Part shown: positions 43,156 to 62,146 of the stretch, in pieces
Position numbering within the stretch: the stretch's first letter is position 1
How the letters are laid out: every line of letters starts with the position of its first letter
Source of the DNA: a virus
Taxonomy: Duplodnaviria; Caudoviricetes
Direction: 5' to 3' (one strand)
Length of the DNA: 64,000 nt
Virus record (IMG/VR): IMGVR_UViG_3300020577_002562
Coordinates: 64,001 to 128,000 of that record
Notes under the pieces: generated by a model
Database searches by the model: none
What the model was told of the DNA's origin: nothing
What the model saw: only the letters and a program-made list of their open reading frames with translations
Translations under genes and position numbers: made by a program

Positions 43156-43704
43156 TCATGTCAGACGGATAGGAAGAGTGTCCAGCATCAGTTGAAGATG
43201 CGTGGTCGAAATAGCTTTTCCTACACGTACTTGCCATCCAGTTGTTGGGAGTGTTGACGTAATAGAGCCTGCTACCGTTGTGCTCAGGTAGTAGAATGCG
43301 TTGGGTGCAAGACCACCGCTTCCACCTGTTACTGTATCCCACTGACCAGTGGTTGCGGACATTGTGCCATCGATGGCTATTGTTGCGCTTGCATTGTTTA
43401 GTACAGACACGTCAGTCACAAAACCTGTCGGGCGACGAGTGCCGTCCGCATTGGCCTGTGCCAACCCGACTGTGCCGTTACCGTTGGTGTAGACAATTTG
43501 CCCGATCACCATAGTCGAACCGCTCGTATTCAGCAGCGACTCGGTGTTTGTGTTGCTACCCATTGGTCCAGGCGGGCCAGCGGGTCCTTGTTCATTGACA
43601 CTGGTCAAAGTCACCACCTGCTCAGTGGTATCTACGCTGACTACAGTGTCACTGACTTCGACGATGGTGGTCGGTGCTGTAGGCACCAGTACAACGTCAA
43701 CCAT
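43156..43704 (-). CDS. putative fibre/adaptor protein with short collagen-like motif
   Basis: QGPAGPPGPMG followed by a beta domain (GQIVY...LAQAN...YYLSTT..G...VGKAIS). Confidence 0.6.
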   Translation of the reverse strand: MVDVVLVPTAPTTIVEVSDTVVSVDTTEQVVTLTSVNEQGPAGPPGPMGSNTNTESLLNTSGSTMVIGQIVYTNGNGTVGLAQANADGTRRPTGFVTDVSVLNNASATIAIDGTMSATTGQWDTVTGGSGGLAPNAFYYLSTTVAGSITSTLPTTGWQVRVGKAISTTHLQLMLDTLPIRLT

Positions 43705-44050
43705 GTACGGCTCCAGGCACAATCGTCATCACACCCTCTATAAGAGACAGTGTATCTCCTTGAGTGTCAACTACATGCAGACCGTAGTGATAGTGATCCT
43801 CAGTAAGTGCTAGCATCTGAACGTCTGTTGCCAGCATCGTCAGTGAGCCAGTCAAGTTCACAATGAGAATGCCAGATGGGCTCGTCAACTCAAGCGCAAC
43901 CGGAGCAGTCAATGCCGTCGATATGCGGAATTGAGCCTTAGCCGTGTAACCAGTCAAGTTGACAGGAGTTCCGTTGGAAGTCCAAAGGAACGTCTTGCGG
44001 AGAGTAGCACCACGATAGATGCTAAAGTTGTGGATGCCTGGCGTGATCAT
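43697..44050 (-). CDS. small phage structural/adaptor protein
   Basis: I.RGAT...PVNLTGYTAKAQFR...G pattern often found upstream of fibre genes. Confidence 0.6.
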   Translation of the reverse strand: MITPGIHNFSIYRGATLRKTFLWTSNGTPVNLTGYTAKAQFRISTALTAPVALELTSPSGILIVNLTGSLTMLATDVQMLALTEDHYHYGLHVVDTQGDTLSLIEGVMTIVPGAVHG

Positions 44051-44062
44051 CAGATCCTCACT

Positions 44063-45184
44063 TCAACGGCCCCAAGGTAGCAAGCCTTTTCTCAGAGCAC
44101 TGCGGTCTTTTCTGCGTTGCAGTCTCTCTTCATTTTGACGGAAGGCATCGATGGCAGCTTTCAAAAGGTTCTGATCCATCTTCTCTGGGTTTGGATGCTT
44201 GAACAACTTGTCCAACTGTACAACCTTCATCTGCCTTTGGTATGGCCATTCCATCACTGTCCAACCGCGACCATAAGGGTACGCCAACGCTCCGTCAATC
44301 TGCTCACCATTCCATACACCCTTGACAAACATGCCAGCAGTTGGGTTGTAGACAGGAGATAGCGTCTGAAGCTTCTTCATGTTCTGGTGCTCGCCCTCAC
44401 GAATCTTCTGCACCTTCTGCTCGTGGGCTTTCCGTTCACCCTCTTTCATGTATACGGTGTTAGGATTCGGATCGTAGCGTAGTGGATTCAGACCGACCTT
44501 ACGCATCCACTTTTGCCACGTAGGTCCGTGCCCCTTATTCACATTTTCGATCACACGGTCAATCTCGCTCACAGCCTGATGGCACATCTCATGAAGAAGG
44601 ATCTCAACAAAGAAGTTCTGATGCCCGTTGAACAGGCGAGGCGACAGCCCAATGACACGGCGACTTGCACTCCAGTAGCCACGCCGACGCATGTTCTCGC
44701 CCATATCCTTGGTCAAGAGAAAGTTCGGTGCCTTCATCCGGCTCTGGAACTTCTCACGATTCAAGTAGTCCCACAACTTGCGGACGAATCGGCCAGCTTC
44801 TGGGCTGTTGCGAACGTTGTTCGTTGGCACCTCAGCATACATCTCTTCCAGATGCACGGGGATGCGAACGACCGGTACATTCTTGTCGTCGTTCTCCCGC
44901 GAAGTGCGGATCTTAGGTGGTTTGGGAGCTATTGATGGCTTACCGACCGTGATGGCCTTGATCGATACGTCCGTGTAGATCTTCTTGCTCAATGGGACGT
45001 TGACTTTGACCAGTATACGCCCAACATCGCCTACCGGATAACGTTCCACGTCACCGTCTGCATGCTTGACCTGTACCGCACCTGACGGAAAGACTTTGGT
45101 GACTACGCCCAAATGCCAAGGGCCGCTGAATCGTCCAGCTACTACATCGTTGATGTTGAGTTTGATGGTCTGCATTGTTGACAT
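44063..45184 (-). CDS. SprT-like zinc metalloprotease with Tudor/SH3-like N-terminal domain
   Basis: LNREKF, ILLHEMCHQA, GHGPTWQKWM; AAGGAG RBS. Confidence 0.85.
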   Translation of the reverse strand: MSTMQTIKLNINDVVAGRFSGPWHLGVVTKVFPSGAVQVKHADGDVERYPVGDVGRILVKVNVPLSKKIYTDVSIKAITVGKPSIAPKPPKIRTSRENDDKNVPVVRIPVHLEEMYAEVPTNNVRNSPEAGRFVRKLWDYLNREKFQSRMKAPNFLLTKDMGENMRRRGYWSASRRVIGLSPRLFNGHQNFFVEILLHEMCHQAVSEIDRVIENVNKGHGPTWQKWMRKVGLNPLRYDPNPNTVYMKEGERKAHEQKVQKIREGEHQNMKKLQTLSPVYNPTAGMFVKGVWNGEQIDGALAYPYGRGWTVMEWPYQRQMKVVQLDKLFKHPNPEKMDQNLLKAAIDAFRQNEERLQRRKDRSALRKGLLPWGR

Positions 45185-45214
45185 CTTGCTTCTCCTTTTA
45201 GCTACCCAACCGGG

Positions 45215-46006
45215 TTACTTACCGCGCCAGATAATCAGTTGATCTGACAGTGCCGTTGTGAACGCAGGCGTAGCCACGCTGCTAGTCTCGAAGAACACGA
45301 GGTTGTGTACGTTCTTGAACACCAGGATACCATTACGGATCTCGAACTGTCCGATGGCATTGATGTCCAAGTGAGAGCACTTACCTACTTCAGAACCGCA
45401 GTAGCTGCAGGAGTAACCAGGCTCTTCTTCAATAGTGCCGACCCAGGCGCCCATCGAGTACGAGTTCTGCTCACCGGTCAGAATCCTGTTCGCCAGTACA
45501 CTGTTCTTGGTGCGGTCCAGCGCCAGCAATGCAATCAACTTGTAGACCGGGCGGCCGTTACCATATCCGTGCACCAAACGTAGAGCACAGTCAACGATGA
45601 CCCCAATTGCCTTGGTTGGATCTTGGTTGTCATGCTCTACGTGCATCGGTTTGCCGATCAGAGTACGATAGGCCAAACAACCGTGCTCCAAGTTGAACTT
45701 GACCAGTTCCTTGAGCGGGAATGCCACTGCGTTCCGATTCGGCAAATCGGCTGGCATAATGACAACTGGCACTAGAACATAGTCTTCTAGTGCCGAGCTG
45801 ATTTGATACCTAGGAGCAGCAAACGGGAGCCACTGGCTGAACTCGACCTCGATACCAGCGCCCTTGGAGAAGCCGAGGTCCGAAGCGGCGGTCACAAGTG
45901 AAGCCGTGGCCTTCCGACGCAAACCGTATACGTCGATAGGCTTGGCGTATTGTTCACAGTCGGAGTAGACTGCGAATCCTCGATGAGAGAGCAACTTGCT
46001 AGTCAT
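45215..46006 (-). CDS. prohead maturation protease (HK97/assemblin-like clan SH)
   Basis: PNRN..AFP, GKPMHVEH, YSMGA, CSYCG..CSH, FFETSSVATPA. Confidence 0.78.
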   Translation of the reverse strand: MTSKLLSHRGFAVYSDCEQYAKPIDVYGLRRKATASLVTAASDLGFSKGAGIEVEFSQWLPFAAPRYQISSALEDYVLVPVVIMPADLPNRNAVAFPLKELVKFNLEHGCLAYRTLIGKPMHVEHDNQDPTKAIGVIVDCALRLVHGYGNGRPVYKLIALLALDRTKNSVLANRILTGEQNSYSMGAWVGTIEEEPGYSCSYCGSEVGKCSHLDINAIGQFEIRNGILVFKNVHNLVFFETSSVATPAFTTALSDQLIIWRGK

Positions 46007-46538
46007 TCGGATTCCTTGGTGGACGGAAGTCTACGCGCAGACGAGTTTGCAGTCCTTGATTCGGCATATGCACCATCTTACGCTCTACCTTCTCAAGAGC
46101 ATGGAACCACTTGTTCGCCAGCGGTTCATATGCCAGAGGGTCTTCACGCTTGCCTGGATCTTCGATAGAGCGTTCGATCCACTCTTTGTCTGTCTCAAGC
46201 ATCATGTCCTGTACGAACGTGTGGTCTTCTTCTGGCCTAACGTACAACACTGCTAGATCACACGCAGCAACCGCTTCCTTAGTCGGCGACACAGTGAACT
46301 TCTGAATCACACCTCGAGTTTCTGGAAGGGTGCGCAGCGTGTAGTGCCACACAACCGAACTGACGGGCTGCACCATCGAACTGAGAACTGGAAGTAGCCA
46401 CAGGCTGCTGTCCAGAATGATCGGCTCGATGCGTCTACGTAGTGACAAGCTCTTCAAGTCCTGAATGACCAAAGCCTTAACACGTTCCGAGACTACATCT
46501 GAGCTTTGCTTATAGCAACAGATGAGTACCTTCATCAT
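45999..46538 (-). CDS. hypothetical protein
   Basis: Coupled between the portal and protease genes. Confidence 0.55.
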   Translation of the reverse strand: MMKVLICCYKQSSDVVSERVKALVIQDLKSLSLRRRIEPIILDSSLWLLPVLSSMVQPVSSVVWHYTLRTLPETRGVIQKFTVSPTKEAVAACDLAVLYVRPEEDHTFVQDMMLETDKEWIERSIEDPGKREDPLAYEPLANKWFHALEKVERKMVHMPNQGLQTRLRVDFRPPRNPND

Positions 46539-48352
46539 AGCCTCAAAGGTTTGATTCCAGCCGCCATAGCACGCTTCGCAACTTCATTCGCGTACTTAGG
46601 ATCGGAGTGCAAGCGTGCTGCCGCTGCGGCAATGGCAATGTCTGCCTTCTCATTTGCCATGCGTTGATTGTGGATGTACTTGAGCTTTCCGGTGCGTGTT
46701 GTGCCTACAACTTCTTGCTGCTCGTGTTTACGACCCAAGAAGCTTCGACGGTGCGATGTCAGTTGTTGCGCTGAACTGAACTCGCCCATATTGGATTCGT
46801 CGTCTGCTGCATCGGCGCCGTCACCTGACTCGCCTTGGATCTGTTTCCAAGCCGCTTTCATCTTCTGCTCACGACGCAGGTCATCTTCTAGCCCATCCAG
46901 CGATACACCAGCAGAGGCTGCAAGCATGCGCATGGTAATCGGAACACCAAGATCACGAAGCTCCTTCAGCAAATCGAACGTATCGCGATCCAGATCACGA
47001 CCCAGTGGTCGATGCCACTGCACTTCAGGAATGTCCCACTTCGACGTATCGTTCAGTTGTTGCAACAGAGTGCGTGTCGAATTGGCTACGAACGCATGCT
47101 CCTTGTCATGCTTGCCGCTCAAGAATCCTTTGGATGCCGCGACCAGCGGAAATATCTTATTGATCAAGGCTGCTTGCGTCATGCGGTTGCGATGAGCACG
47201 CAGACCTTGAATGAACACAGAGATGGCAGCGTCCGCGTTGGCAAACGAGGCGTCACCAGACAAGAATGCTTCGCTGATGCCGAGAGCGCGAAGCTTCATG
47301 GCACCTGTGACATCGGACAAGTCTGTGAACTTCCAAAAGTCACCACCCTGCCGCACTTCGCTAGGCGTCACGCCTTGACGTGTGGCAACGATAGCTCCTA
47401 GAGGATCTAGATCAGCTTGCTGCATCAGACTGACAACAGCAGCTAACTCGTCGTTCGTTGGTTCCCAAGTGTCATTGCCGCACTCCAGGTGCAGCATAGC
47501 TCGTTGGCGTCTGGCAGCTTCCGTCATCGTCCCTTTGTACAGCGCCTTCTCCAAGAAGTAGATGGGCAGAATACGCTTGAAGATCGATGTGCCGAGTTGA
47601 TCGTAGGAGAATGTGCGTCGTGCTACGTACAATGTGAGCAGCGGTTCCAGCTCTACGTTTCCGCCCGACAGCACTCGAATGATGTCCATACCAAGCTTCT
47701 TACGAAGCTTCTGGGCAGCTTGACTGTTGTTCGACACGAACTGCTCAATCGCTTGACTCCGCTTCACTGTGATAAGCGGGTCTGCAGACCTCATCGGAAC
47801 AGATTGCCGTGTGACGTTGGTGGGCTCGTGACTGATGCAGTCCGTAAACTGCGTCAAGTTCCTGTCATAGATTAGGCTACAAACCGAGTAGCCATTTGCC
47901 AGTACATCAACTGTGAGTTCCGGGAACAATGCGCCTATGTTCAACTGCGCAGTGGCAGAATTGTAGACCTGCAGACGTTCAGCAGATACGCCCGACAGAG
48001 TGAATTCGCCGAATGGCATGGCCGCGATCAAGTCAACTGCGGAGCCTGCTGTTGTATCGTACCAGTAGATGTCTCGGTAGAAGCGTTGATTCGCCTCGTC
48101 CGTATCACCGGCAAAGCCAGTGAGCAACGTATCGTAAAAGACAGGGCTCGCCCCCATCTGTGATGCGGAGAACGAATTGAGCCCTTGCGGCTCACCCCAG
48201 TAATCAGCACGCTCTTGTCTGCCTACTCTACTAGACGCAGCCGCATACACTGATTGAAGACCCACCGCTGCCATAGCATCGCGAGTAGCTGCGGGTGCTC
48301 CGGCTACGATCTGAGAGTCTACAACTCGGATGTGGTTTCGGGTGCGAATCAT
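46535..48352 (-). CDS. portal protein
   Basis: 605 aa between terminase and protease; FYRDIY..D...GSAVDL...PF, GTSI, ALGISEAFLSG.ASF. Confidence 0.75.
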   Translation of the reverse strand: MIRTRNHIRVVDSQIVAGAPAATRDAMAAVGLQSVYAAASSRVGRQERADYWGEPQGLNSFSASQMGASPVFYDTLLTGFAGDTDEANQRFYRDIYWYDTTAGSAVDLIAAMPFGEFTLSGVSAERLQVYNSATAQLNIGALFPELTVDVLANGYSVCSLIYDRNLTQFTDCISHEPTNVTRQSVPMRSADPLITVKRSQAIEQFVSNNSQAAQKLRKKLGMDIIRVLSGGNVELEPLLTLYVARRTFSYDQLGTSIFKRILPIYFLEKALYKGTMTEAARRQRAMLHLECGNDTWEPTNDELAAVVSLMQQADLDPLGAIVATRQGVTPSEVRQGGDFWKFTDLSDVTGAMKLRALGISEAFLSGDASFANADAAISVFIQGLRAHRNRMTQAALINKIFPLVAASKGFLSGKHDKEHAFVANSTRTLLQQLNDTSKWDIPEVQWHRPLGRDLDRDTFDLLKELRDLGVPITMRMLAASAGVSLDGLEDDLRREQKMKAAWKQIQGESGDGADAADDESNMGEFSSAQQLTSHRRSFLGRKHEQQEVVGTTRTGKLKYIHNQRMANEKADIAIAAAAARLHSDPKYANEVAKRAMAAGIKPLRL

Positions 48353-48567
48353 TGACGTGCCACGCGATCTTCAATTGGGAGGGCCACACGATGCTCAAGA
48401 CAGGCGTATGACGGAATACCGTTGGCCTGTACTTCTTTCATTCTGCTGTTGCACACCGGACACAATCCAGTTGGACTTGGCTCCCAACGTGCGGACTCTT
48501 GCCTCGATGTTTTCGCCGTTTCAGTTTTCGAGCCTGACGCAGTTTCAAATGGGTCGATCAACTTCAT
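48349..48567 (-). CDS. small Zn-finger protein
   Basis: CPVC...CLEH; ATGA overlap with the portal gene. Confidence 0.6.
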   Translation of the reverse strand: MKLIDPFETASGSKTETAKTSRQESARWEPSPTGLCPVCNSRMKEVQANGIPSYACLEHRVALPIEDRVARQ

Positions 48568-48592
48568 GTCTATTCCAATCCAGTGCGTGTCT

Positions 48593-48601
48593 TGAAATTA
48601 G
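48593..48601 (-). promoter_or_regulatory. candidate late promoter CTAATTTCA
   Basis: Intergenic, about 26 bp upstream of the portal operon. Confidence 0.55.
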
Positions 48602-48619
48602 TGGATGCGTGCGTAGGTT

Positions 48620-50983
48620 CTACTTAGAAGCAGCTCCTAAACCAGCCGGATTAGATGCTGGACCCCCGCCAATCGATCCAATATTCGACGGAACGGGATT
48701 ACTACTAAATCGTAATCCCGAAGCGGTCGGTACTGCAATGCCCATCGTGGAAGAACCTGCGCCAATACCAGCAGAAATTCCACGTTGACGTGGAGGTTTG
48801 ATGTGCTTCTTGCACCACTCATCGTCCAACAAGAACTTGGTACCGAGTGCCCATGCTCTCCAAATATCATCTGTAAGCCCAGGTGCCTTTTCGATTGTAC
48901 GGCCTCCATCGCGAATGGTAGCCAACTGAAGCAAGAAGTGTTCCACAGGTAGATACTGGAAACACTGTGGATAGTTGTCCTGCATCAACAGTATCTCTTG
49001 AAGAGGAATTCCAGAGGCTGGAATCCTGAATGACCGGTCCAGAATGTGATTCTGCACCAGTAGCATATCATCCCTCTTCAATGAGTATCGTTCCGCTGGA
49101 ATACCAAGAGCCTGTGACAAATCATGCAACAACTTGATGCTATTCCACTGATCAGCAAACACGTAGCACACGTTGAAAGCCTTAGCTAACGGAAGCAATA
49201 CATGCTCATAGACCAGAGAGAAGTTCACCACGGAGTTACCAATAGAGGGCGCAATCTCAAGCATCACATCTGTGATGACTTTGATAGGGTCTCTTCTATT
49301 AGGGTTGCGATGAGAGATGGTGCAGGTAAATGAGTTGTTAGACAAGCCTGCGTCGATGGTCATTACCGATGAGATAACCAGAGCCGGCGGATTGCATGCC
49401 ACTTTGGCGTAACGATACTTGACTCCGTGCCGTTCGACCTTATGGTAGTTGTACACCACTCTGTTAGGCACTTTGCCAGGCAGCGCCGATATTGCATCGT
49501 GATCCTGAATAAACGCAGAGTCTACGAGAGGTGGTTGTGCACCAAAGTCACGCATTGCCTTGGCTTCACTACTTTGGAAGTAGGAGTCCAGAGCTTTGCG
49601 GCTGAGTTTAGGGTGAATGTCCCAAGTAGCCAGATGCAACGCCAATATCTTCCGACTGTTGGCGTTGGACTTTACGTGACGCATCATCACGTCACGTCTA
49701 TGCTGAGGGCTAGAGCCTATGATGAACACGGCATTCGGAACATCGTAGTACCCGGATTTCACTCGGTCTTTCCAACCGACGCGCACGTTCAGCATGCTGT
49801 TGTCGAGTGAGGTATAGACTTCACTACCGTTCATGCGAACGGTCTGATCTTCCTCATTACCGTCAGAGAAAAATGCCCACTCGTCCAACAGACAGTTGTG
49901 AACCAGAATGCCGTTGGCAGAGAACATATGGATGTCCTCCACCTCGATGTCATATACGTCGTGCTCTCCTTCCAGTTCTTCGCTGCGCCACAGACGATCA
50001 CGGACGATGTGATTGTTGTCTCGCACCTGGTAGTCGAACGGATTGTCAAGTAGGACGCGAAATGCAGTTGTAGAGTTGCGGTGAATCTGAAGTGTACTGG
50101 GGCGTCGGACAGACAAAACACCAAGGCTCAGCAGCAGAATCTGAGTCTGCTGCATGCGCTTGTCTTCACCGAACAAGACAAAGCTATCCTGGAACAGCGC
50201 AGATAGATAGGCACTGACATGGATCAAAGATGACCGTAGAATCACCCATGGTACTTCGCCTCTAGGAAAGCCCCATTCGGATTCTGCGTATTCGTCATCT
50301 GCTAGCTGTGAGGCTAATTCGCTGGTCATGCGATGTCTAGTTCCATCCTTTTTTCGGAACTGGTCCAAGTTCTTTCTGGAAGCCCCGTTCGCACCGGCTA
50401 CAATGACCACATCGCTAGGTTTGATGTGCTGTGCTTGACGCCACACCATATCATTGTGCTCATCCGAACACATCACCAGATGAGCAGGAGTCAGATCCAA
50501 ACTGAACCCAAATGTGGTTGTCAAACGTATCAGCTTCTTCGCACCTGTACGCATAGCTCTAAGTACAGTAGCTGGAGCCCCAGCTACGCACACACGATTT
50601 TGGTCTGGTATGATACGTTGCATCTCTATGAGACCCAAGTCCGTTTGGACAAGTGCATCACCTCGAATGCATAGCCAACGTGTCTTACCACGCAGCAGCT
50701 TACGGTTTGGACCTGCTGGATACAGCATCAATTGCCGATGAGGATAGTGAAGCATCTGTGTCTGAAACTTCAGAAGCTCCTCGCCATTGCGATTACCCTC
50801 ATGCTTGAGCATGTCGTGATAGCCGCAATTATGTACATTCATGCCACCTGCGTAGTAGTTGTGCGTCCCTGCTACCTCGAAATCGTACACCTTGTGCTTA
50901 CTCAAGTCCGTTACCGACCTGACCTTAACCGCCTTGATAGTCTTACCATTAACGGTAATGATCTTACTTGATTCGGTTTCCAT
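48620..50983 (-). CDS. terL: terminase large subunit, C-terminal part (split-intein C half, 52-aa extein, cis intein, then Walker B and nuclease)
   Basis: After splicing reads RGKTRWL|CLLDEW (Walker B); SSP motif, IDAG, DQWNS, DDIWRA nuclease residues. Confidence 0.88.
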   Translation of the reverse strand: METESSKIITVNGKTIKAVKVRSVTDLSKHKVYDFEVAGTHNYYAGGMNVHNCGYHDMLKHEGNRNGEELLKFQTQMLHYPHRQLMLYPAGPNRKLLRGKTRWLCIRGDALVQTDLGLIEMQRIIPDQNRVCVAGAPATVLRAMRTGAKKLIRLTTTFGFSLDLTPAHLVMCSDEHNDMVWRQAQHIKPSDVVIVAGANGASRKNLDQFRKKDGTRHRMTSELASQLADDEYAESEWGFPRGEVPWVILRSSLIHVSAYLSALFQDSFVLFGEDKRMQQTQILLLSLGVLSVRRPSTLQIHRNSTTAFRVLLDNPFDYQVRDNNHIVRDRLWRSEELEGEHDVYDIEVEDIHMFSANGILVHNCLLDEWAFFSDGNEEDQTVRMNGSEVYTSLDNSMLNVRVGWKDRVKSGYYDVPNAVFIIGSSPQHRRDVMMRHVKSNANSRKILALHLATWDIHPKLSRKALDSYFQSSEAKAMRDFGAQPPLVDSAFIQDHDAISALPGKVPNRVVYNYHKVERHGVKYRYAKVACNPPALVISSVMTIDAGLSNNSFTCTISHRNPNRRDPIKVITDVMLEIAPSIGNSVVNFSLVYEHVLLPLAKAFNVCYVFADQWNSIKLLHDLSQALGIPAERYSLKRDDMLLVQNHILDRSFRIPASGIPLQEILLMQDNYPQCFQYLPVEHFLLQLATIRDGGRTIEKAPGLTDDIWRAWALGTKFLLDDEWCKKHIKPPRQRGISAGIGAGSSTMGIAVPTASGLRFSSNPVPSNIGSIGGGPASNPAGLGAASK
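49895..50671 (-). mobile_element. contiguous (cis) intein, 259 aa, with degenerate LAGLIDADG remnant
   Basis: CIRGDALVQTDLG (block A), LTPAH (B), VYDIEV...HMFSANGILVHN|C (F/G); remnant YLSALFQD...ILLLSLGV. Confidence 0.92.
50828..50983 (-). mobile_element. split intein C-half (52 aa) of TerL
   Basis: KVYDFEVAGTHNYYAGGMNVHN|C at the N-terminus of the ORF. Confidence 0.92.
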
Positions 50984-51845
50984 ATTTGTCCATTACTAAG
51001 AAGGAAAATTTGAAGCCTTGCGCTCGACACGCACGTCGTTTAGCTCGATTCACTTCCTTGCTTGCTTTGAGTGTGTAATCACTCTTGACCTCGTAGATTT
51101 TATTCCAACGAGGTACGTAAATGTCCGGATGGTATATCCTTCGCTTGCCATCAAAAACATATTCAATACTGGGCAATTGTTTGTCACCGATGCCGCAACG
51201 AATGTCTGATGGCTGTAGTCTCGTGTTCGACAAAAGCCACTCAATAGCCTGAGGCTCATAACCTTGGACTTGAACCATTCGCTGACCGAGTTTGATTCGT
51301 TTGCATTTATAGGCAGTAGCCAGATTTTTGTCGAACAATTCCTTACTCTGAAGTGCGTGAATCACTCCATATCGTTTACGCATTGTACGTCTAATCTTAC
51401 TCTGAATTTCAGTACGTTGCGTGGAGTATTCGACTCCGTACTTGCGTAAGTTGTATTGCTTAAGCTTCTCTTGAGAACACGGCGGACAGCCACTTCCTTT
51501 TCGCACATTGCCCAAGTATGGCGACCACTCGTGTTTGCACACTAAACATTTCACACGAGTGCGCGTGTTCATGTTAACGAACTCACCTACGCGCTTTATA
51601 TTCTGTTGTCGCAGAAACTTGTCTAGCTCATTCAGGTCGAAGCGTTTACTCTGACTTATGTTGCGATTCCGGGTACAGGCACATCCATATCTGAGCCAAT
51701 AACTGAAATGTTGGGAGGACTGCCGATCACAATCTTGGCAGCGCACTACCAGTTTGTACTGGTGCTGTGGGTCAACACCAACTACTAACAATGACGAACC
51801 GCTACTTTTCAGGTAGGACTTCACAATTTTTAGATTATCACTCAT
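50964..51845 (-). CDS. free-standing Zn-ribbon / PD-(D/E)XK putative homing endonuclease
   Basis: CQDC..., CLVCKHEW...CPPC, KYGVEY repeats, QGYEPQA...YHPDIY...YEVKS; lies between the split-intein halves; AT-rich by eye. Confidence 0.8.
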   Translation of the reverse strand: MSDNLKIVKSYLKSSGSSLLVVGVDPQHQYKLVVRCQDCDRQSSQHFSYWLRYGCACTRNRNISQSKRFDLNELDKFLRQQNIKRVGEFVNMNTRTRVKCLVCKHEWSPYLGNVRKGSGCPPCSQEKLKQYNLRKYGVEYSTQRTEIQSKIRRTMRKRYGVIHALQSKELFDKNLATAYKCKRIKLGQRMVQVQGYEPQAIEWLLSNTRLQPSDIRCGIGDKQLPSIEYVFDGKRRIYHPDIYVPRWNKIYEVKSDYTLKASKEVNRAKRRACRAQGFKFSFLVMDKYGNRIK

Positions 51846-51890
51846 GGTACTCACCGAATCACATACATCAAATTAGTCGGAGTACCATGA
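51842..51890 (-). promoter_or_regulatory. RBS/start-sequestering hairpin with an internal candidate late promoter
   Basis: 11-bp perfect inverted repeat TCATGGTACTC (51842-51852)/GAGTACCATGA (51880-51890) covers the ATG at 51845; CTAATTTGA at 51868-51876 lies between the arms. Confidence 0.75.
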
Positions 51891-51895
51891 CATGC

Positions 51896-52891
51896 TTAAT
51901 CTTCTGTCACCACGTAATCATCTTCCGTTAGCAGATGGATTTCCTTCCACATAATAGCCATACCATCCGGTGTGAGAACGCGAATGCAGTGATCTCCTGT
52001 GGCGACCAGCTTCTTATCGTCTTCCAGAGTTATCTCCTTACAACTGCGCACGCCATTGTCAAAATGACACAGGACTTTGCTTGATCCTTCAAATGTTTTG
52101 ACCATATCACCCGGCTTTATCTGCTCGATTGGAACAGTATTGCCGTTCTCCAGTGTGATCGGTGTACCCTCAGCAATACAGAACCATTGACAGCCCTCAA
52201 TGTAAGTCTTGATCGGTAGCCACTGCTGCTCGTAGGCGTTTGCGAACGTCTGAGCTACTGCCGTACCGACCATAGTGGTTGGCTCAAGATCATACACCTC
52301 GTAGGGGCGTTGAAGCTTAATCATGCGATGCAACTGATAGACTGCGGCAGGCGCTTCAAACTGAGTCGTCTTACCTACTCGCTGGCCGGCTAGCAAGGCT
52401 AGCTCGTGGTACGGCATCATCTCTTTGGCACGCAATAGCTCTAGCCGCGTAGCTTTGCACTTTGGGCACTTGCCGTGTTTTAGCAGTTGGAAGTGCTCAG
52501 GGAATGCATCACTCTTGATCTTCAGTGGCACATCTAGAATGTTGCCTGTGTGGTACTTTGGATTGGAGCACCGTGGACAGATTTCGCCGAACAACATGGA
52601 CAACGCCCACAGTTGGCGTGCGAATGGGCGCAAACGCAAACCAGTGGGCGAAGTTGAGAACTCCCAGTAATTCGGGAATAGCTTAAAGTCACGGTCGTCG
52701 ATCCGCAGATCGCGAACCATCCGTGTGGTAGGATCGATTGCATCCGCTACCATACTCTCAAGATCTAACTCAAGATTCTGGTCTACAGCGAACGTTGTCT
52801 TGATCGGTGTGGGTGCTTCAACTTCACCAAACAACTCGTCGATGAACCCTCGCCTGTCTTTGAGCTTCACTTTGCAATCTCCTGAGGCCAC
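51896..52891 (-). CDS. terL: terminase large subunit, N-terminal part plus split-intein N half
   Basis: PFARQ, Zn-ribbon insert, AGQRVGKTT Walker A. Confidence 0.85.
   Translation of the reverse strand: MASGDCKVKLKDRRGFIDELFGEVEAPTPIKTTFAVDQNLELDLESMVADAIDPTTRMVRDLRIDDRDFKLFPNYWEFSTSPTGLRLRPFARQLWALSMLFGEICPRCSNPKYHTGNILDVPLKIKSDAFPEHFQLLKHGKCPKCKATRLELLRAKEMMPYHELALLAGQRVGKTTQFEAPAAVYQLHRMIKLQRPYEVYDLEPTTMVGTAVAQTFANAYEQQWLPIKTYIEGCQWFCIAEGTPITLENGNTVPIEQIKPGDMVKTFEGSSKVLCHFDNGVRSCKEITLEDDKKLVATGDHCIRVLTPDGMAIMWKEIHLLTEDDYVVTED
51899..52180 (-). mobile_element. split intein N-half (94 aa) of TerL
   Basis: WF|CIAEGTPITLENG..PIEQI..GD.V (block A), ATGDH (block B); ends acidic EDDYVVTED, then stop. 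Confidence 0.92.
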
Positions 52892-53583
52892 AGTCTCATC
52901 AGAACACGCTCCAGATCCTCTGGGTGCGCTTTAAGTTGTCCTGCCAAGTGTCGTATAACTGACAACTCGATAAGCTGATCTGTAGCCTTGGTTACTCGGT
53001 CACTGGTGACGTTGATCTGTCTGTTGTTCGTCAACAGTCTCAGAGTCTCCTCCATATCCGCGTAAGCGGTTGGTAGACTTAGCTCCAAGGCAGAGATACG
53101 GACCAACAGTTCATATAGCGTCTTGTGGTTCTTCTTCAGACGAGTTGTGAACTCTCCGCGCAGCTTCTTGTCTACTTCCTTGAGCGTGATGTCTGGGACT
53201 GATGACTGTGGTTGCGTCTTTACCAGTTCGACCAGTTTTCGTTTGCGCTTTCGTTTGTTCAGTAGAGCGTCAGCATCCCACCAATCATCTCGCGTTCGCT
53301 TTTCCGGCTGCGGCAGCTTAGTAGCAATCTTGGGGCTCTCTTTATGAATGACCCCGAAGATTGGGTCATTCAACGTCGCTGAGGTCTTCGAGGTATTTCT
53401 CGTCTTTGTCCGTTTGGTCTTTCCGTCTTCCGTCGTTCGACCGATGCTTGTTTCTTCCATTAGCTGGGCGAACACTCTTGCCTGTTGTTCGGAAGCCAGA
53501 CTTTCCTGATCCTGCGTGTCGGCCGCTGGAACTGGAACCGGACCCTCGTTTGGTTTTACCTCTACTGGTACTGTCTTCTTCAT
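52867..53583 (-). CDS. hypothetical protein directly upstream of TerL (possible terminase small subunit)
   Basis: GGAG 6 nt before ATG 53583; overlaps the DnaB 3' end; function inferred from position only. Confidence 0.45.
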   Translation of the reverse strand: MKKTVPVEVKPNEGPVPVPAADTQDQESLASEQQARVFAQLMEETSIGRTTEDGKTKRTKTRNTSKTSATLNDPIFGVIHKESPKIATKLPQPEKRTRDDWWDADALLNKRKRKRKLVELVKTQPQSSVPDITLKEVDKKLRGEFTTRLKKNHKTLYELLVRISALELSLPTAYADMEETLRLLTNNRQINVTSDRVTKATDQLIELSVIRHLAGQLKAHPEDLERVLMRLWPQEIAK

Positions 53584-54862
53584 CGTCATCTCCGCCATCA
53601 GGCAGCATATTACGGTCTACGTCCTTGTATTGCATCGGCGCGTTGATAGCCATGATTTGGAACGGGAACTTCTTCTGGTTACGCGCCTTCTGTTGCTCGA
53701 TGTCCAAGATCGATACATCGCTAATCTCGGCCGGGGCAGTCCACGACCACAGGTTGTTTGCATTCTCTTTGATGCCACCAGAGTAACGCACCAGACCCTC
53801 TTTCGATAGCTGTGCCACTAGAATGACTACAGTGTTCGTGTTCTTGGCCCAGATCTTGGCAAACCGACTGATCTTTGTCAACTGCTTCCATTGCTCATCA
53901 CCGTCCGCACCCTTCAGTAGTGAGATGTAGTCAACGATGACAACCTTGTATCCGTAGGGCTTCAACGAGAACAGCACCTCTTCGATTGATACGTCTTCAT
54001 CCGGTGACAGGATCGAGTACCGGGTGCCTATCTCTTTGAGTTCCTTGACAAAGGCTACATAACTACTCTTGATTAGCTTGCGTTCACTGTTGGACAACCG
54101 GCCCTGAGATATTCGGTTGACATCTATACCAGAGAGCACACCAAGCTCACGCGCCTTCATCTGCGTAGCGGTCATCTCCAACGGCACTATGGCAACGTCA
54201 TGCCCGCGCCGAGCCATGTTGATGCCAAGTTGGTTTGCCACTGCTGACTTACCGCCTCCGGAATCCGCAGCCAGCACTACCAACGAACCTTCTAGAAAAC
54301 CGCCATTCTCTCGGTCAAAGTCATCAAAGCCAGTTGGTACTACTTTGGGCTTCTTGGCTGACAGCAAGTCCTTAACCAACTTGACCGAGTTGTTGCCCTT
54401 TCCAGTGTGGAATAGACTCTGGGTCAAGTCGACCTTGGTCTGGCTCTTGACTAACTTGGTGTGCAAGGCTTCGGTCAGCTTCTCGACATCTAGTTGATCG
54501 CCCTCAATCTCGTTGTAGATCTGTTCAGCAATCGAATAGAGCCCCCGTACTCTCCGCATCTTGTCCAGCGTGCGGATCATGCTTCGGGCATCACGCCTCG
54601 AATCTGTGGTTTCAGCGTCTGACCCCTTCAATAGCTTCCGGTACTTCTCCGATAGCTTGGGGTCTGAACACAGTTCAGTCCACGAGGGTATCTCACCTGA
54701 CTGACGAACGCTTGCCATCACTGCTTCATAGGCCGCTTTCGTTGGCGGGTGGAAGAAGCAGTCTTCGTTCAATGAAGCAAGCACCAGACTTCGCAGCTTG
54801 TCAGAGGCATCGCATATCGTGCGCAATGCCTGGTACTCTAACCTGGTACTAACGATTTTCAT
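53366..54862 (-). CDS. dnaB: DnaB-like replicative helicase
   Basis: PTGF..FD...GG, LAADSGGGKS, LEM, IVDYISLL, VAQLS, KARNQ. Confidence 0.92.
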   Translation of the reverse strand: MKIVSTRLEYQALRTICDASDKLRSLVLASLNEDCFFHPPTKAAYEAVMASVRQSGEIPSWTELCSDPKLSEKYRKLLKGSDAETTDSRRDARSMIRTLDKMRRVRGLYSIAEQIYNEIEGDQLDVEKLTEALHTKLVKSQTKVDLTQSLFHTGKGNNSVKLVKDLLSAKKPKVVPTGFDDFDRENGGFLEGSLVVLAADSGGGKSAVANQLGINMARRGHDVAIVPLEMTATQMKARELGVLSGIDVNRISQGRLSNSERKLIKSSYVAFVKELKEIGTRYSILSPDEDVSIEEVLFSLKPYGYKVVIVDYISLLKGADGDEQWKQLTKISRFAKIWAKNTNTVVILVAQLSKEGLVRYSGGIKENANNLWSWTAPAEISDVSILDIEQQKARNQKKFPFQIMAINAPMQYKDVDRNMLPDGGDDDEEDSTSRGKTKRGSGSSSSGRHAGSGKSGFRTTGKSVRPANGRNKHRSNDGRRKDQTDKDEKYLEDLSDVE

Positions 54863-55428
54863 AGGACTTGTACAGTCTCAACGTGACCTAGATTCATGCA
54901 GTATTGAATAGCCATGTGCAGCTTGCTATTGGCTATCGTTAGTGGATCACATCCACTACAAACCACGATGCGAGGGATGTTGCTGTATTGGGTTAGCAAG
55001 TCTCTCACCTTCTCAAACTTAACGGCTGTGCTATCAACCACCAGATTGCTCAAGACCAACATGCTAGGCCTGAACTCTGCTGGCTTGTCGCGGAGCTTGT
55101 CTGCGAACGAACCGTTGACCCAATGCCATAGAGGCGGCTCGAAGCCCGGGCGCCGAAGTTTGAATGCCAGCCCCATCATGTGAGCGGCCAAAAGTCTAGC
55201 TCGCTGGTCGTTAGGATTCGATGCGATGACCATGATGTACGGGTCAGCATCTTTGACACAGTGTTCATAGCGCATCAACTGCGCTGCCCTAGTAATACGC
55301 TTGTCAGCGTGGCGGAACGATTTGGCTGCACGATCAAGCACAAAAGGCCGCACACGAAACAAGTCTCGTGGCAGCCCTCTGTTCAGCATCTGCTGCTGTA
55401 ACGTCGTGTCTGACGGTAATTGGATCAC
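54859..55428 (-). CDS. hypothetical protein, possible degenerate helicase loader
   Basis: ATGA overlap with the DnaB start; P-loop-like secondary pattern without an intact Walker A. Confidence 0.4.
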   Translation of the reverse strand: MIQLPSDTTLQQQMLNRGLPRDLFRVRPFVLDRAAKSFRHADKRITRAAQLMRYEHCVKDADPYIMVIASNPNDQRARLLAAHMMGLAFKLRRPGFEPPLWHWVNGSFADKLRDKPAEFRPSMLVLSNLVVDSTAVKFEKVRDLLTQYSNIPRIVVCSGCDPLTIANSKLHMAIQYCMNLGHVETVQVL

Positions 55429-55486
55429 ACGCCTCTCCGGCTTTGAAGTCTACTACTTTACCGATTCGTCAGTCAGACTAATCGGT

Positions 55487-56293
55487 TCACTTGGATCCTT
55501 TTTCTGGTCGCATACCCATGCGCTTATACCGAATCTCCATCAGCAATTTTCCAAGTTGATTCTCGCCACGACCGTTGCACACACCCCAGAAAATGTCACC
55601 CCAATGGTTGCCCTCAATGAGCTTGTCTGGGTACGTTTCAATCAACCGCCTGGTCAGCGTCTTGCCTGGAGCAAATTTCTGCCCCAACAATTGCCGCATC
55701 ACATCTATCTTGATGCGCTCCCAGTTTGGCGAAAGCCGAACTCGGCTGCCCTTTCTCTTGGCCTGTCCGGCAGTGCAAGTCTCGTAGATCTCTCGTTCCG
55801 TTGTTGGCGACTTGGCTGCTTGGTAGGCGTTCTCTACAGTCGGGTACGTCTTGCCGTCTAACACAACCTCACTAGCCCAGAAGTTACTGAGCCAAGCATA
55901 TTCACCGTCAAAGCGTGTTATGGCCGTAGTTGGTTTCATCTCTCGAGGCTTTCTGTCTCTTCGGTCAGTCGAATCTAGCAATCCGCTGCCTACTGTGTTA
56001 CCGTCACTATCCAATTTCAGGTTGTAGACTGAGGTGAGCGCAGCTATTGCCAACAATTCTGCTCTAGAGAATACGGTCAATGGCTTACCGCAGTACCCTA
56101 GTTGCTGTGCTATCATCAGACCAGTTTTTAACAGGTCTAATGGTAGTCTACTTTCTGTGCTACCCTGACACCCTTCTATGTTGCATAGATCGGTTAGTGT
56201 GCAAGCGTCGCATGGGATCTTGACTTCTTTTTTTGGCTCTGTGGACTCCTCTTTGTTAAAGTCTGGTGTTGGCGATACCAAAGGCTTGTCCAT
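55487..56293 (-). CDS. NADAR-domain protein with unrelated N-terminal extension
   Basis: WLSNFW...YPTVENAYQAAK...KF...LIEGNHWGDIFWG...GENQLGKLLMEIR. Confidence 0.88.
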   Translation of the reverse strand: MDKPLVSPTPDFNKEESTEPKKEVKIPCDACTLTDLCNIEGCQGSTESRLPLDLLKTGLMIAQQLGYCGKPLTVFSRAELLAIAALTSVYNLKLDSDGNTVGSGLLDSTDRRDRKPREMKPTTAITRFDGEYAWLSNFWASEVVLDGKTYPTVENAYQAAKSPTTEREIYETCTAGQAKRKGSRVRLSPNWERIKIDVMRQLLGQKFAPGKTLTRRLIETYPDKLIEGNHWGDIFWGVCNGRGENQLGKLLMEIRYKRMGMRPEKGSK

Positions 56294-56300
56294 CAGAGTC

Positions 56301-56717
56301 TCAGTAGTTTGGGTTAGTCTCGAATGAGATTGGAGATGGTTTTGCGAGGTCGCTCGCTAACTTGAAGCCAAGCAACGGCCAAATCTTACTGACTGCATGC
56401 TGCCGCGCCACTTTGCGGCCAAACTCTGGGTCAAAGTTCTCAGCACTTACGCAAGCACTTTCTCCGGTCACGGTGTACCCATTCTGCAAGACCAGCACAC
56501 AGATCGTTAGCCTATCCAATGAACTAGGAAAATCTAATGAGACTCTTGTGCCTTCATTTACGGCATCTGGACCATCCCTGGCCGCTTCTCCTGCAGTGAA
56601 GTAGTGCTCAGATACAATTGCGTTCTCTATGTCACGCAGCGTCACTCGTGGAGCGTTCAGCCCACGGGCAAGAATCTCTTGTTCAACGTTGGTTACAGCC
56701 ACAATCCACTCCTTCAA
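56301..56717 (-). CDS. N4 gp49 / Sf6 gene 66 family protein
   Basis: APRVT..IE..I..EHYFT, LTICVLVL.NGYTVTGESAC...NFD.E.G. Confidence 0.85.
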   Translation of the reverse strand: MKEWIVAVTNVEQEILARGLNAPRVTLRDIENAIVSEHYFTAGEAARDGPDAVNEGTRVSLDFPSSLDRLTICVLVLQNGYTVTGESACVSAENFDPEFGRKVARQHAVSKIWPLLGFKLASDLAKPSPISFETNPNY

Positions 56718-57175
56718 CGTAGAGTATTGGCATCGCGCATAGCGCGGTACTTGTTCAGTTCTTCAACCACCAGATCTAGGTCAGAGACATCGATACTAAG
56801 CTCCTTTCCACTCAACTGAAGTTTGACTTGATCATCCACGAAGCCTGTACCACGCAGCAGATAGCTTCCGATTTGATATGTACGCACCATCTCTTTCATC
56901 ATCGGACTGAGCCCCCATCGACGTTCTCGTCCGGAACCCCCAAACTCTGTGGCATTCTTCTTGACCAATAAACCAGCATCCATTGCCTGTTCCAAGCAAG
57001 TACGAAGTCCGACTATAGGTCCGAAGAGATCTTGCATGAACTCGGTGCTGATCCAATCATTCGGGTGCATAGCCAAGTACATCATGATCTTGACACGAGG
57101 GGCAACTTCATAGCGTTGCCTAGTCTTTGATGTAGATTCGCTTTCGCGCACGGCGCGTCCGTTTTGATAGATCAC
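56714..57175 (-). CDS. hypothetical protein, possible winged-helix
   Basis: Packed ORF with ATGA coupling. Confidence 0.5.
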   Translation of the reverse strand: MIYQNGRAVRESESTSKTRQRYEVAPRVKIMMYLAMHPNDWISTEFMQDLFGPIVGLRTCLEQAMDAGLLVKKNATEFGGSGRERRWGLSPMMKEMVRTYQIGSYLLRGTGFVDDQVKLQLSGKELSIDVSDLDLVVEELNKYRAMRDANTLR

Positions 57176-57608
57176 CTGACCTCCATGCTAGTCTAGCCAG
57201 AATGGTAACTCGTACCTCTAGATCCATCGGACGCGAACGGGCTTTCGTGCGTATTCGACAGTAGCCAGTGTCGTCCAATACCAGTACGCCACAGTCTCCT
57301 AATCTTCGTTGGGTCAGTAGTTTAGCCGTCTGTGCCTTCTCGTACACTTTCTTGGTAACGCACAAGTACATGCGGTCGCAGAAAGGGCGGTACTCATGCA
57401 TCTTGTTGTCGGTGCGCAGATCCGCCAATGAGGACTTGACTTCAACAATGACGATCTGACCGCTGATCTTGTTGCCGATTACGTCTACGCGCCGGCGACC
57501 CCACGGCATCACTCCGACCTCGAAGTGACAACTGAAGCGGTACTTGAAGAAGAGGTACGCCGCAGCTTGCTTGAGCGCATCAGCTACTTGCTTACGTGAC
57601 GCTGCCAC
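57120..57608 (-). CDS. MmcB-like PD-(D/E)XK nuclease
   Basis: RRVDVIG...IVEVKSS.AD.R.D.K..EY..FCDR.Y. Confidence 0.78.
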   Translation of the reverse strand: MAASRKQVADALKQAAAYLFFKYRFSCHFEVGVMPWGRRRVDVIGNKISGQIVIVEVKSSLADLRTDNKMHEYRPFCDRMYLCVTKKVYEKAQTAKLLTQRRLGDCGVLVLDDTGYCRIRTKARSRPMDLEVRVTILARLAWRSGDLSKRTRRARKRIYIKD

Positions 57609-57612
57609 GCAT

Positions 57613-58020
57613 TTATCCCTTATACTCCAATAGTCTCAGATCTTTCTCGCGCAGTATGAACTGATGTCTACTGTCACCTTGTAGGAGATTGATAGTACCG
57701 CTTCTATCATCAATCCATGACTCATCATCGAACAGCACAGCGAAGCGAAATCCCTTCTCAGTGAACTCCACCTCTTGCACAGTCGCTTTAGCACCCGGCA
57801 CCAGGAAATGTGCGCAGTGTCTCCAGCCCGGCGCTTTGTTGTAGTCCGGGGCGGCAACCAGAGCTACACGATCACCAACCTTGAATGGTGCGTGTTTCTC
57901 GATCAGATGATTGTAGGCGGCTACAAGCTTACGCAAGTAGTAATCAAGAGGACCGCTGTTCAGGAGCCTTATCGCATCCGACATGAGCGATATTGCTTTC
58001 TCCACTTTCTCAATTCCCAT
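57613..58020 (-). CDS. hypothetical protein
   Basis: AAGGA RBS; PFKVGDRV. Confidence 0.6.
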   Translation of the reverse strand: MGIEKVEKAISLMSDAIRLLNSGPLDYYLRKLVAAYNHLIEKHAPFKVGDRVALVAAPDYNKAPGWRHCAHFLVPGAKATVQEVEFTEKGFRFAVLFDDESWIDDRSGTINLLQGDSRHQFILREKDLRLLEYKG

Positions 58021-58270
58021 GGAAGTCCTTAAATAGCGTCAAGCTGATATTACGATTGACGTCGTGTGTTTTAAGAGAATCTACCGAAGCAATCTCTTTG
58101 TCAGTAGCTAGCCTCCAGTAACGCGGCAGTATCATAGACCCAAACAACGGATCAATAACACAGCATCCACGATTACACGTCTTTACGATACGTTCGGAAT
58201 CCAGTACACTGTAGCGAACAGCAATCCAGGTCTGTTTAGGCGGTAGCTCCTCGTCAAACGATTTGAGCAT
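58010..58270 (-). CDS. hypothetical protein
   Basis: GGAG RBS. Confidence 0.5.
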   Translation of the reverse strand: MLKSFDEELPPKQTWIAVRYSVLDSERIVKTCNRGCCVIDPLFGSMILPRYWRLATDKEIASVDSLKTHDVNRNISLTLFKDFHGN

Positions 58271-58286
58271 TCTTCACTCCAGTATC

Positions 58287-58736
58287 TCACGCAACGCCAG
58301 TGGAGCCGATGCCGCCCTGACCGCGCTCAGTCTGGTCGAACTGGTCAACCACTGTGAATTGAGCTTGCATTACAGGTACGATGATCATCTGAGCTACGCG
58401 ATCCATAGGGGTGATGAAGAAGGGTACATTGGATCGGTTCCACATGCTGACCATCAAGGGTCCTTGGTAGTCACTATCGATCAGACCTACCAAGTTACCG
58501 AGCACGATTCCATTTCGGGCACCGAGTCCTGACCTAGGCAACAACATGGCGGCATAGCTTGGATCGCGGATGTAGATGGAGAGTCCAGTTGAAATTAGCT
58601 TAGATGCTCCTGGGTCCAAACAAGTCGGAAGATCGATGCATGCACGTAGATCGAGCCCCGCCGAACCGACAGTTGCGTATGTAGGCAACTGGTCACGCAT
58701 ACGCTCGTCCAGTATCTTCACTTCAACGTTGATCAT
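58287..58736 (-). CDS. dut: trimeric dUTPase
   Basis: [32 protein letters not shown] motifs. Confidence 0.97.
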
Positions 58737-59482
58737 GATTGGTCCTTGTCACATAGGGTAGTATTTCCAGAGCACTCACACTGGTTTCGTGGCAGACAAC
58801 TGTCTCGCCACATTACGTCAGAACACTTGTCGCAGGATACTGAACGGTCACCTCTCGTGACTAGCGTTGGTTCACGCTGCTCCTTAGTCGTCGCGTGCTC
58901 ACGGCAGTGGACCACGTAGTGCTTGTCTGTTCCGTAGTCACCAAAAGTCGAGCACCCGCAACTGCTAGTACCAGCATACCCCACGACGCGCTCTTGAAAT
59001 GAGCAGTCCGACAACTCATTCCACAAGGTCACACGACGGCCATCGTCCATCTTGACCTCATAGCGTCCGGCTCGAATCGTTACCGAGACAGGCAATGCTT
59101 GCTTGGCAGGTGGTGTTAGTGTGTGTGCTGCCACAGCTCTAGCTGCGTGGTTCTTTCCAAAGTGTTCTTTGGCGCAGACCTCGCACATGATGGCCCTACA
59201 ATCCAAGCATCGGATCACCGTGTTGAATGACAGTGCGGTCTTGCATTGGTAACAAACCTGTACAGTCTTGGTGAGCAGGTCGATTGCGTGCTGATAGACC
59301 AATGCGCCAATGTTCCAATCCCTCAAATTGATCTGTTGACCGCCTTCAGTCTTTTCCTTCTCAAAGCCGAATTGTGCATATGCCTTCTCAATGGCTTCCG
59401 CCAACTGCCGCCAATCGAATGTGGGTATGATGCGTTCCATGTCAACTGTCCCCTTCGTTGAATAGCTAGGCGTATTCATCAC
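58733..59482 (-). CDS. hypothetical Cys-rich protein
   Basis: Several CxxC pairs; ATGA overlap with dut. Confidence 0.55.
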
Positions 59483-59506
59483 CTACTAATTGATTCATCA
59501 TTTCCT

Positions 59507-59575
59507 TCACCTAGAGGCGAACCACGCCAGAGCCGCGATCAAACAAAACGCGAGAAAGGCGATGAAGTACATCAT
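59507..59575 (-). CDS. 22-aa hydrophobic microprotein
   Basis: MMYFIAFLAFCLIAALAWFASR; ATGA overlap with the upstream stop. Confidence 0.4.
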   Translation of the reverse strand: MMYFIAFLAFCLIAALAWFASR

Positions 59576-60561: not shown

Positions 60562-60609
60562 AGTTTCTATCTCCTACCATAGAGACCCCACGCGCTTGAC
60601 GTTCCCTGG

Positions 60610-61140: not shown

Positions 61141-61153
61141 CTGTACACCTTAC

Positions 61154-62116
61154 CTACCACTTGATTCCGATGGTTGGACTGTCGTCAACTACTCTACGCC
61201 CCTTGTTCATGTACTTCATGGCGACTTGTACCTGCTCTCGGTCGATCTTGAATCTCTCAGGCTTGTAGGTCTGCCAGAAGCAAGTGCGCAGACAGCCACG
61301 ACTAGGGCCGTAGTCCTCTATGAAATGCTTGATCAACGGTTGTTGCTTGCCGTCCACCACTGTCCGTATACGTGCAGTCTCTTGCGCCAGCTTAGGTGGA
61401 TTGGAAATCGGTATGACCTCGTAGATGGTGTCCCATCGCGGGATGTTCAAGCCGACTTGCACGATCCGTCGGATACCAACGATGATGCGAATGCGGCCGC
61501 TTCGCGCATCTTGCAGTATCTTAGGACGCTGCGTGTTCCGTTCGACCTGACCAGTGAATGCGGCAGCAATGTCGCGGTCTTTCCCAGTCATACGTCGGTA
61601 TGCCTTGTTCAGCACGTTGGTCAGCAGCATCGCGTGCTTCACTCGATCCACCGGGATGACGATTGACCGGTCGTGCTTGATAACGTCCTTCAGCGCGTGC
61701 TTGACTATCAGTGTGTTACGTTGCTCGTTGTTGGACAACCAAGTGATAGCACCCGGCCATGTCTTGTGACCGGCGTGCGTAACCCCAGTCTCTACGAACT
61801 GAACACTAGGCACCAGCGTATTGGCTTGCCCCTCGGCACGTACAGGACCGATCACCAACTGAGAGAGTATGATCTTGCCATCTTTGCGATCATACGTCCC
61901 CGTCAGTCCGATCATGTACAACGAGTTCAACTGAGCCACTACTTTGAGGTACTCATCCGCCGCAGTGTCGTGGCAATTATGAACGAGCACACCTTTGTCT
62001 GAGTCTGGGCCATAGACAAAGTAGTTGTGATGCTGCTCCACTCCTATATCGTACACATCTACAGGCGCATCCAGTTTGATATGCTCTACTGATGACACTC
62101 TCACTAATTTTGTCAT
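61154..62116 (-). CDS. SF2 (UvsW-like) helicase, C-terminal part with split-intein C half
   Basis: VHN|CH completes DECH; GLTGTYDRKDG (motif III), GLNIP (V), QETARIRT (VI). Confidence 0.88.
   Translation of the reverse strand: MTKLVRVSSVEHIKLDAPVDVYDIGVEQHHNYFVYGPDSDKGVLVHNCHDTAADEYLKVVAQLNSLYMIGLTGTYDRKDGKIILSQLVIGPVRAEGQANTLVPSVQFVETGVTHAGHKTWPGAITWLSNNEQRNTLIVKHALKDVIKHDRSIVIPVDRVKHAMLLTNVLNKAYRRMTGKDRDIAAAFTGQVERNTQRPKILQDARSGRIRIIVGIRRIVQVGLNIPRWDTIYEVIPISNPPKLAQETARIRTVVDGKQQPLIKHFIEDYGPSRGCLRTCFWQTYKPERFKIDREQVQVAMKYMNKGRRVVDDSPTIGIKW
61976..62116 (-). mobile_element. split intein C-half (47 aa) of the helicase
   Basis: VYDIGVEQHHNYFV...GVLVHN|C. Confidence 0.92.
62104..62112 (+). 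promoter_or_regulatory. candidate late promoter CTAATTTTG for the endonuclease
   Basis: About 35 bp upstream of ATG 62147; overlaps the antisense start of the helicase C gene. Confidence 0.4.
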
Positions 62117-62146
62117 ACTGGTGAATCATGTATTGGAGTTAAGGGC

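Follow-up and report, generated by a model that had tools for sequence, protein, structure and literature searches.

Why should the start codon of an endonuclease gene lie inside a perfect inverted repeat, with a promoter-like motif in the loop? The question is raised by a locus in which such a gene stands between the two halves of a split large terminase subunit (TerL) gene. The DNA analysed here, which we will call the window, is a stretch of 64,000 nucleotides. It covers bases 64001-128000 of an IMG/VR virus record of 187,209 bp, with a completeness of about 75%; the GC content is 52%. The phage is uncultured and belongs to a wastewater clade of jumbo phages related to PaBG and GR7B: the nearest cultured relatives of its portal protein, at 32-39% identity, are the jumbo phages Vibrio phage GR7B, Pseudomonas phage PaBG, Achromobacter phage Motura and Erwinia phage Yoloswag. 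No closely related DNA was found in the phage collection, and a search of IMG/VR proteins returned endonucleases at 33% identity only and no relative of the N-terminal TerL half (TerL-N). Contigs from four wastewater RNA libraries of one study lie over window positions 43501-63500, and the mixture of stretches that are 100% identical with others at 90-95% indicates that close strain variants of the phage co-occur in wastewater. These contigs are short, at 3-8x, and scattered across the whole 20 kb, and starts, strand and levels are unreadable from them; two (51682-51950 and 51732-52056) span the junction with the inverted repeat, possibly through DNA carry-over.

All the genes concerned are on the minus strand, in the order DnaB, 243-aa ORF, TerL-N/IntN, DUF7487 endonuclease, IntC/TerL-C, 72-aa ORF, portal and head maturation protease. 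The DnaB-type helicase gene (53366-54862) is followed by the 243-aa ORF and then by the TerL N-extein, which carries Walker A and is fused to the 94-aa N half of a split intein, IntN (51896..52891; phrog_17415, terminase large subunit, E=5e-44). Hint-domain matches fall at its residues 238-305, while residues 41-237 align to residues 69-274 of the TerL of GR7B, the alignment ending exactly at the intein junction. That protein, of 762 aa, is unsplit and free of inteins, and its gene sits directly behind DnaB, in the same operon position. The 787-aa IntC/TerL-C ORF (48620..50983; phrog_17415, E=1e-104, with an Intein_splicing match) begins with IntC (52 aa) and 52 aa of extein; a second intein, complete in itself, then precedes Walker B and the remaining TerL. 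In the alignment with GR7B TerL, residues 55-102 of the ORF product correspond to 277-325 and residues 366-723 to 330-704. Since both breakpoints fall at adjacent residues of the GR7B protein (274/277 and 325/330), the locus is a fractured terminase gene, with an extein-IntN gene and an IntC-extein gene that enclose a free-standing endonuclease gene. Dassa, London, Stoddard, Schueler-Furman and Pietrokovski (2009) described 26 fractured-gene loci, one of which is a terminase (PMC2677866).

The endonuclease gene occupies 50964..51845 (ORF 50964-51854), its ATG at 51845 being backed by the N-termini of homologues. The protein (PF24308, E=3.6e-30) combines zinc ribbons with a canonical PD-(D/E)xK core, in which GYE...PD...EVK is invariant in the alignment. 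Pfam returned DUF7487 and a weak TnsA-like match, neither Vsr nor GIY-YIG, and sequence and profile searches gave no significant relatives in the PDB. Two paralogues of this nuclease are encoded elsewhere in the same genome. On its downstream side the TerL-C gene is followed by the 72-aa ORF (48349-48567), which heads the portal/protease head operon.

The inverted repeat has arms at 51842-51852 and 51880-51890 that pair over 11 bp with 100% complementarity across a 27-nt loop (minus strand). The 5' arm (TCATGGTACTC, 51880..51890) starts 5 nt after the TerL-N stop codon (TAA, 51898-51896), and the 3' arm (GAGTACCATGA, 51842..51852) spans the GAG of an SD-like GGTGAG (51855-51850), a 4-nt spacer, the ATG (51845-51843) and one more base. 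Inside the loop lies the promoter-like CTAATTT (51870..51876, minus strand). An earlier note on this DNA had described just such an 11-bp perfect repeat, pairing the leader with part of the GGTGAG and with the ATG, and had placed CTAATTT between the arms; our repeat search recovers the same repeat, with the motif at 51876-51870. As RNA the element folds at -22.7 kcal/mol (z = -3.85, with none of 200 shuffles as stable), and outer pairs lengthen the stem into the last codons of TerL-N and into codons 3-5 of the endonuclease.

Could a palindrome of this kind be there by chance, or could it serve the TerL-N message as an intrinsic terminator or a processing site? Block shuffles of the 187-kb genome, searched for perfect inverted repeats of at least 11 bp with loops of 3-45 nt, lead one to expect about 2 of them genome-wide, which lends the chance reading some initial appeal, and about 0.05 on any translation start. 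Observed on starts were two, together with one of 10 bp, and all three are at putative endonuclease genes. When start-site pairing was ranked over all 249 ORFs, the five endonuclease genes came 2nd, 9th, 23rd, 68th and 232nd (Mann-Whitney p=0.03), in a noisy ranking where several of the top places are taken by spurious ORFs. Separately, a spurious ORF start was seen in tRNA-gene-like sequence (GGGGTGTAGCGCAGTCTGGTAGCGC...GGTTCGAATCC) at G000:C1:~168818-169123, outside the window. An intrinsic terminator was considered and rejected: the 3' arm runs on into GTGATAATC and not into a U-tract, and the terminator scan does not report the site. That scan found no terminator-like site between DnaB and the endonuclease gene, and over 46000-59000 both sigma-70-type promoters and intrinsic terminators are at or below shuffle expectation. 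As for processing, a stem of 11 bp is on the short side for RNase III. What decides the matter is that the same arrangement recurs, as described below, at homologous and non-homologous endonuclease genes, and we regard chance, termination and processing together as a highly improbable account.

Stems of another kind are present elsewhere in the genome, perfect over 16-22 bp and with loops of only 3-4 nt (window 30705-30752; G000 40606-40643, 56599-56635 and 157389-157424). Several of these share AGAAGGGG at the base and are probably strong terminators; one lies directly upstream of a CTAATTT promoter-like site (G000 40651).

A search with TerL-N yielded five metagenomic relatives, 38-44% identical in this protein. 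DNA of the endonuclease region is available for four of them (L009, L010, L012 and L013, with L011 a second contig of the L010 relative), and the fifth is a short contig, L015, which ends 21 codons into the endonuclease gene. The four share the gene order DnaB, ~260-aa gene, TerL-N/IntN, DUF7487 endonuclease, IntC/TerL-C, small ORF, portal, with an endonuclease/TerL-C overlap of 8-35 nt, and each of them has TAATTT 24-36 nt ahead of the ATG of the endonuclease, together with a stem that covers its SD or ATG. The stem is 18 bp long in L012 (z = -4.7), 11 bp plus 5 wobble-containing pairs in L009 (z = -4.7), 8 bp in L013 (z = -2.7) and 7 bp in L010, where it is no better than shuffles (z = +0.2); L015 keeps the motif, and a clear stem was not found in it. 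The arm sequences of these stems are unrelated to those of our phage. Whole stems have thus been replaced with position and pairing kept, which is strong evidence for a selected structure. Because the arrangement recurs in this way we conclude that the hairpin is real and conserved and not a product of chance. Farther afield, several of 28 distant metagenomic DUF7487-like loci have stems over the predicted start, some of them near TATAAATA, although with automatically predicted starts this is a hint only.

The way in which the stems vary also bears on whether the element acts as RNA or as DNA. A perfect DNA palindrome with a promoter motif at its centre could act as a promoter of the cruciform type, serve the endonuclease or a repressor as a palindromic operator, or be a scar that the endonuclease gene left on insertion, and I-TevI sets a precedent for autorepression, as it binds an operator overlapping its own late promoter (PMC2988022). 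However, among the homologous loci the loops range over 6-27 nt and the arms over 7-18 bp, which fits RNA pairing and not a dimeric protein site; the stem extension in L009 uses G-U pairs, which exist in RNA only; and copies of the motif at non-endonuclease genes lack the palindrome. In contrast to I-TevI, an operator mimicking the homing site was not found here: the leader showed no similarity to the presumed endonuclease-free target (score 9 against a shuffle mean of 7.5, with 93 of 500 shuffles as good), in a test that is weak, the true target being uncertain. A role at the DNA level is therefore, in our opinion, very unlikely.

The same design is found at two other putative endonuclease genes of this genome. 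[quoted passage not shown] A 136-aa HNH endonuclease gene has a 10-bp perfect stem (L006:1567-1598, G000:C1:176066-176097, also outside the window) whose 5' arm begins in the T-run of CTAATTT, with the SD in the loop and the AUG in the 3' arm. At the paralogous DUF7487 gene at 62147-63175 (plus strand), the one that breaks up the helicase gene, CTAATTT (62104..62110, plus strand) precedes the gene by 43 nt and is surrounded by an imperfect long-range stem that covers SD and ATG. The other DUF7487 paralogue (G000 130265-131104) has a weak, mismatched stem only. An SF2 helicase gene (window 61154-64000) is itself fractured by an antisense DUF7487 gene, as it is in L013 (1-2368), where GTAATTT stands 45-50 nt before the fracturing copy; in L010 the same helicase gene is intact (523 aa).

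What is the motif in the loop? The genome has 32 copies of TAATTT, of which 14 lie on the sense strand within the 10-90 nt that precede a start, where 5.4% would be expected (p=3.3e-10). This makes TAATTT the first of all 4096 hexamers for enrichment upstream of starts, above SD-like words. The flanks are conserved as well, giving the consensus CA[C/G]TAATTTnA, and no -35-like element was seen near the copies. Genes that follow the motif include five putative endonuclease genes, a gene for a PKD/LamG virion-type protein and the 72-aa ORF of the head operon, before which a second CTAATTT (48595..48601, minus strand) stands at a distance of 28 nt without a hairpin. This head-operon copy is kept in L009, L010 and L013, and it is from this copy only that the motif may be called late. 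Among the motif-bearing genes, start stems are present at the endonuclease genes and at none of the others, which speaks against the stem belonging to the promoter.

A phage sigma factor is encoded outside the window (L101:295-1284, G000:C1:30294-31283; phrog_17569, E=2e-38, with Sigma70_r2) and is a candidate reader of CA[C/G]TAATTTnA. No phage RNA polymerase (PF00940, PF00562, PF04997) was found in the 187 kb, though one could lie in the missing part of the record. The simplest reading would be a promoter that consists of a -10 element alone and is recognised by means of the phage sigma factor, in the manner of T4 late promoters, and the CACTAATTT sites would then be putative initiation sites for this factor together with the host core polymerase. 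A literature search for a phage TAATTT promoter turned up nothing relevant. Two further repeated words were noticed in the genome. One is a tandem decamer, GGGTGGTTGA, about five copies of which face one inverted copy at a divergent gene junction (G000:C1:149241-149302, outside the window). The other is an 8-mer, TTGAGTAG/CTACTCAA, with five of its six copies intergenic (for example at window 37194 and 38007) in no consistent orientation to genes; it may represent another class of signal.

Taken with the position of the stem, the placement and enrichment of TAATTT lead us to propose that the hairpin is a translational gate on the homing-type endonuclease gene that fractured the TerL gene, a switch of the I-TevI/mobE type. 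RNA reading through from TerL-N would bear both arms, and the stem would hide the SD and AUG of the endonuclease, allowing little enzyme to be made. CA[C/G]TAATTTnA in the loop would act as a -10-like promoter without a -35 element, probably for the polymerase of the host carrying the phage sigma factor, just as before the head operon. RNA begun a few bases past the motif would have a leader of about 17-20 nt from which the 5' arm is absent, leaving the start site open, and the endonuclease would be produced only while this class of promoter is active. The hairpin and internal-promoter design of the earlier note is strongly supported by its recurrence in four relatives and at two other putative endonuclease genes and by the enrichment of the motif. 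We consider the switch the likely function of the element and put it no higher, since promoter activity and the 5' ends of transcripts, read-through, timing and translation are what we infer from this arrangement.

The order of arm and motif could also be taken to suggest a simpler device, a constitutive attenuator that lowers endonuclease translation on all RNAs, TAATTT being some other signal or transcription starting ahead of the 5' arm. At three of the genes, those of L010 and L013 and the 136-aa HNH gene, the 5' arm starts at the motif or just behind it, so that RNA initiated at the motif could keep the stem; relief of the hairpin there would hinge on transcription starting 6-8 nt downstream of the motif, a position that we assume on the model of T4 late promoters. 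The computed accessibility of the start site likewise rises only modestly in the modelled short RNAs. However, at our terminase locus, in L009, in L012 and at the gene next to topoisomerase II the 5' arm lies upstream of the motif or across it, an order that makes little sense if initiation within the hairpin plays no part, and a promoter with a short leader would account for the enrichment of the motif and for its constant spacing of about 30 nt from the ATG. An attenuator that works on every transcript thus appears to us an unlikely explanation.

With such a putative gate in the middle of the terminase, one may ask further whether terminase assembly itself is timed. The earlier note had proposed a temporal AND gate, whereby TerL-N is made from the RNA of the replication operon and TerL-C only from motif-initiated RNA, through coupling to translation of the endonuclease, with trans-splicing delaying active terminase. 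The gene layout on which this rested is as that note described it: the TerL-C ORF (to 50983) begins 20 nt inside the endonuclease ORF (from 50964), giving an overlap at 50964..50983, and the RBS of TerL-C is weak, a GGA alone 5 nt before the ATG, with L010 similar. The overlap is present in all the relatives; TerL-N is packed right behind DnaB and the 243-aa gene, with neither the motif nor a terminator in between; and control of the downstream gene by the hairpin was also raised by Dassa et al. (PMC2677866). Against the gate, good SDs precede TerL-C in L009, L012 and L013 (AAGGAG, GGGAG and GGAG), that is, at three of the five homologous starts, so coupling is not a clade-wide need. The unsplit, intein-less TerL gene of GR7B is directly behind DnaB too, which shows that TerL in this clade ordinarily belongs to that operon with no gate involved. 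In phage operons it is common for a stop codon to overlap the next start, and nothing shows the DnaB operon to be early. The extension to an AND gate is therefore not carried beyond the gene layout, and we view it as improbable. If true, it would mean that the phage has turned a split intein into a timing device, with packaging-competent terminase appearing only after both promoter classes have fired.

Returning to the proposed switch on the endonuclease gene itself, how does it compare with known systems? Experiments have established the design for I-TevI, which lies in the T4 td intron, and for mobE in Aeh1 nrdA (Gott 1988; Gibb and Edgell 2007, 2009), where a late promoter just upstream of the endonuclease gives rise to RNA that is unable to form the hairpin (PMC2988022). 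The mobE gene likewise splits its host gene into two genes. In the T4 late genes soc, e, 25 and 26, too, hairpins that sequester the RBS form only on long early/middle transcripts (PMC2988022), although these are ordinary phage genes, whereas here stems are confined to the endonuclease genes among those bearing the motif. In contrast to I-TevI, intron and RNA splicing are absent from our locus, which removes the rationale of protecting splicing. Our locus also departs from I-TevI and mobE in its promoter class and likely sigma factor, and it is known from its sequence where those two were established by experiment. The mechanism can nevertheless match theirs, even though the class of promoter is different.

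The closest likeness is to the fractured genes of Dassa et al., which share with our locus the split-intein halves around a free-standing endonuclease, the hairpin in the 5' UTR and the downstream overlap. In that set hairpins were found upstream of 15 of 16 endonuclease ORFs, ten of them holding the late-promoter element TATAAATA, and the endonuclease gene overlaps the downstream IntC gene by 6-69 bp (PMC2677866). The differences are in the components. The promoter is CA[C/G]TAATTTnA here and the T4-type TATAAATA there, with TATAAATA absent from our leader; the nuclease is of the DUF7487 type (E...PD...EVK) and not GIY-YIG or Vsr-like; the host genome belongs to the PaBG/GR7B-related jumbo-phage clade and not to marine T4-like phage; and our TerL carries a second, contiguous intein in addition to the split one. 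The design has thus already been described for T4-type phages and for fractured genes, and what is new here is the promoter motif, the nuclease family and the phage lineage.

The locus leaves existing knowledge of how such switches work unchanged. As a by-product, CA[C/G]TAATTTnA is put forward as a candidate promoter consensus of an uncultured clade with a sigma factor of its own, and six stems that have varied in nature can serve as compensatory mutants already made. What it adds is reach: a start-site hairpin with a putative promoter inside now extends beyond the T4-like phages to a distant clade of jumbo phages. This spread across clades suggests that either the design arose by convergent evolution or the endonuclease gene carries a control cassette along with it.
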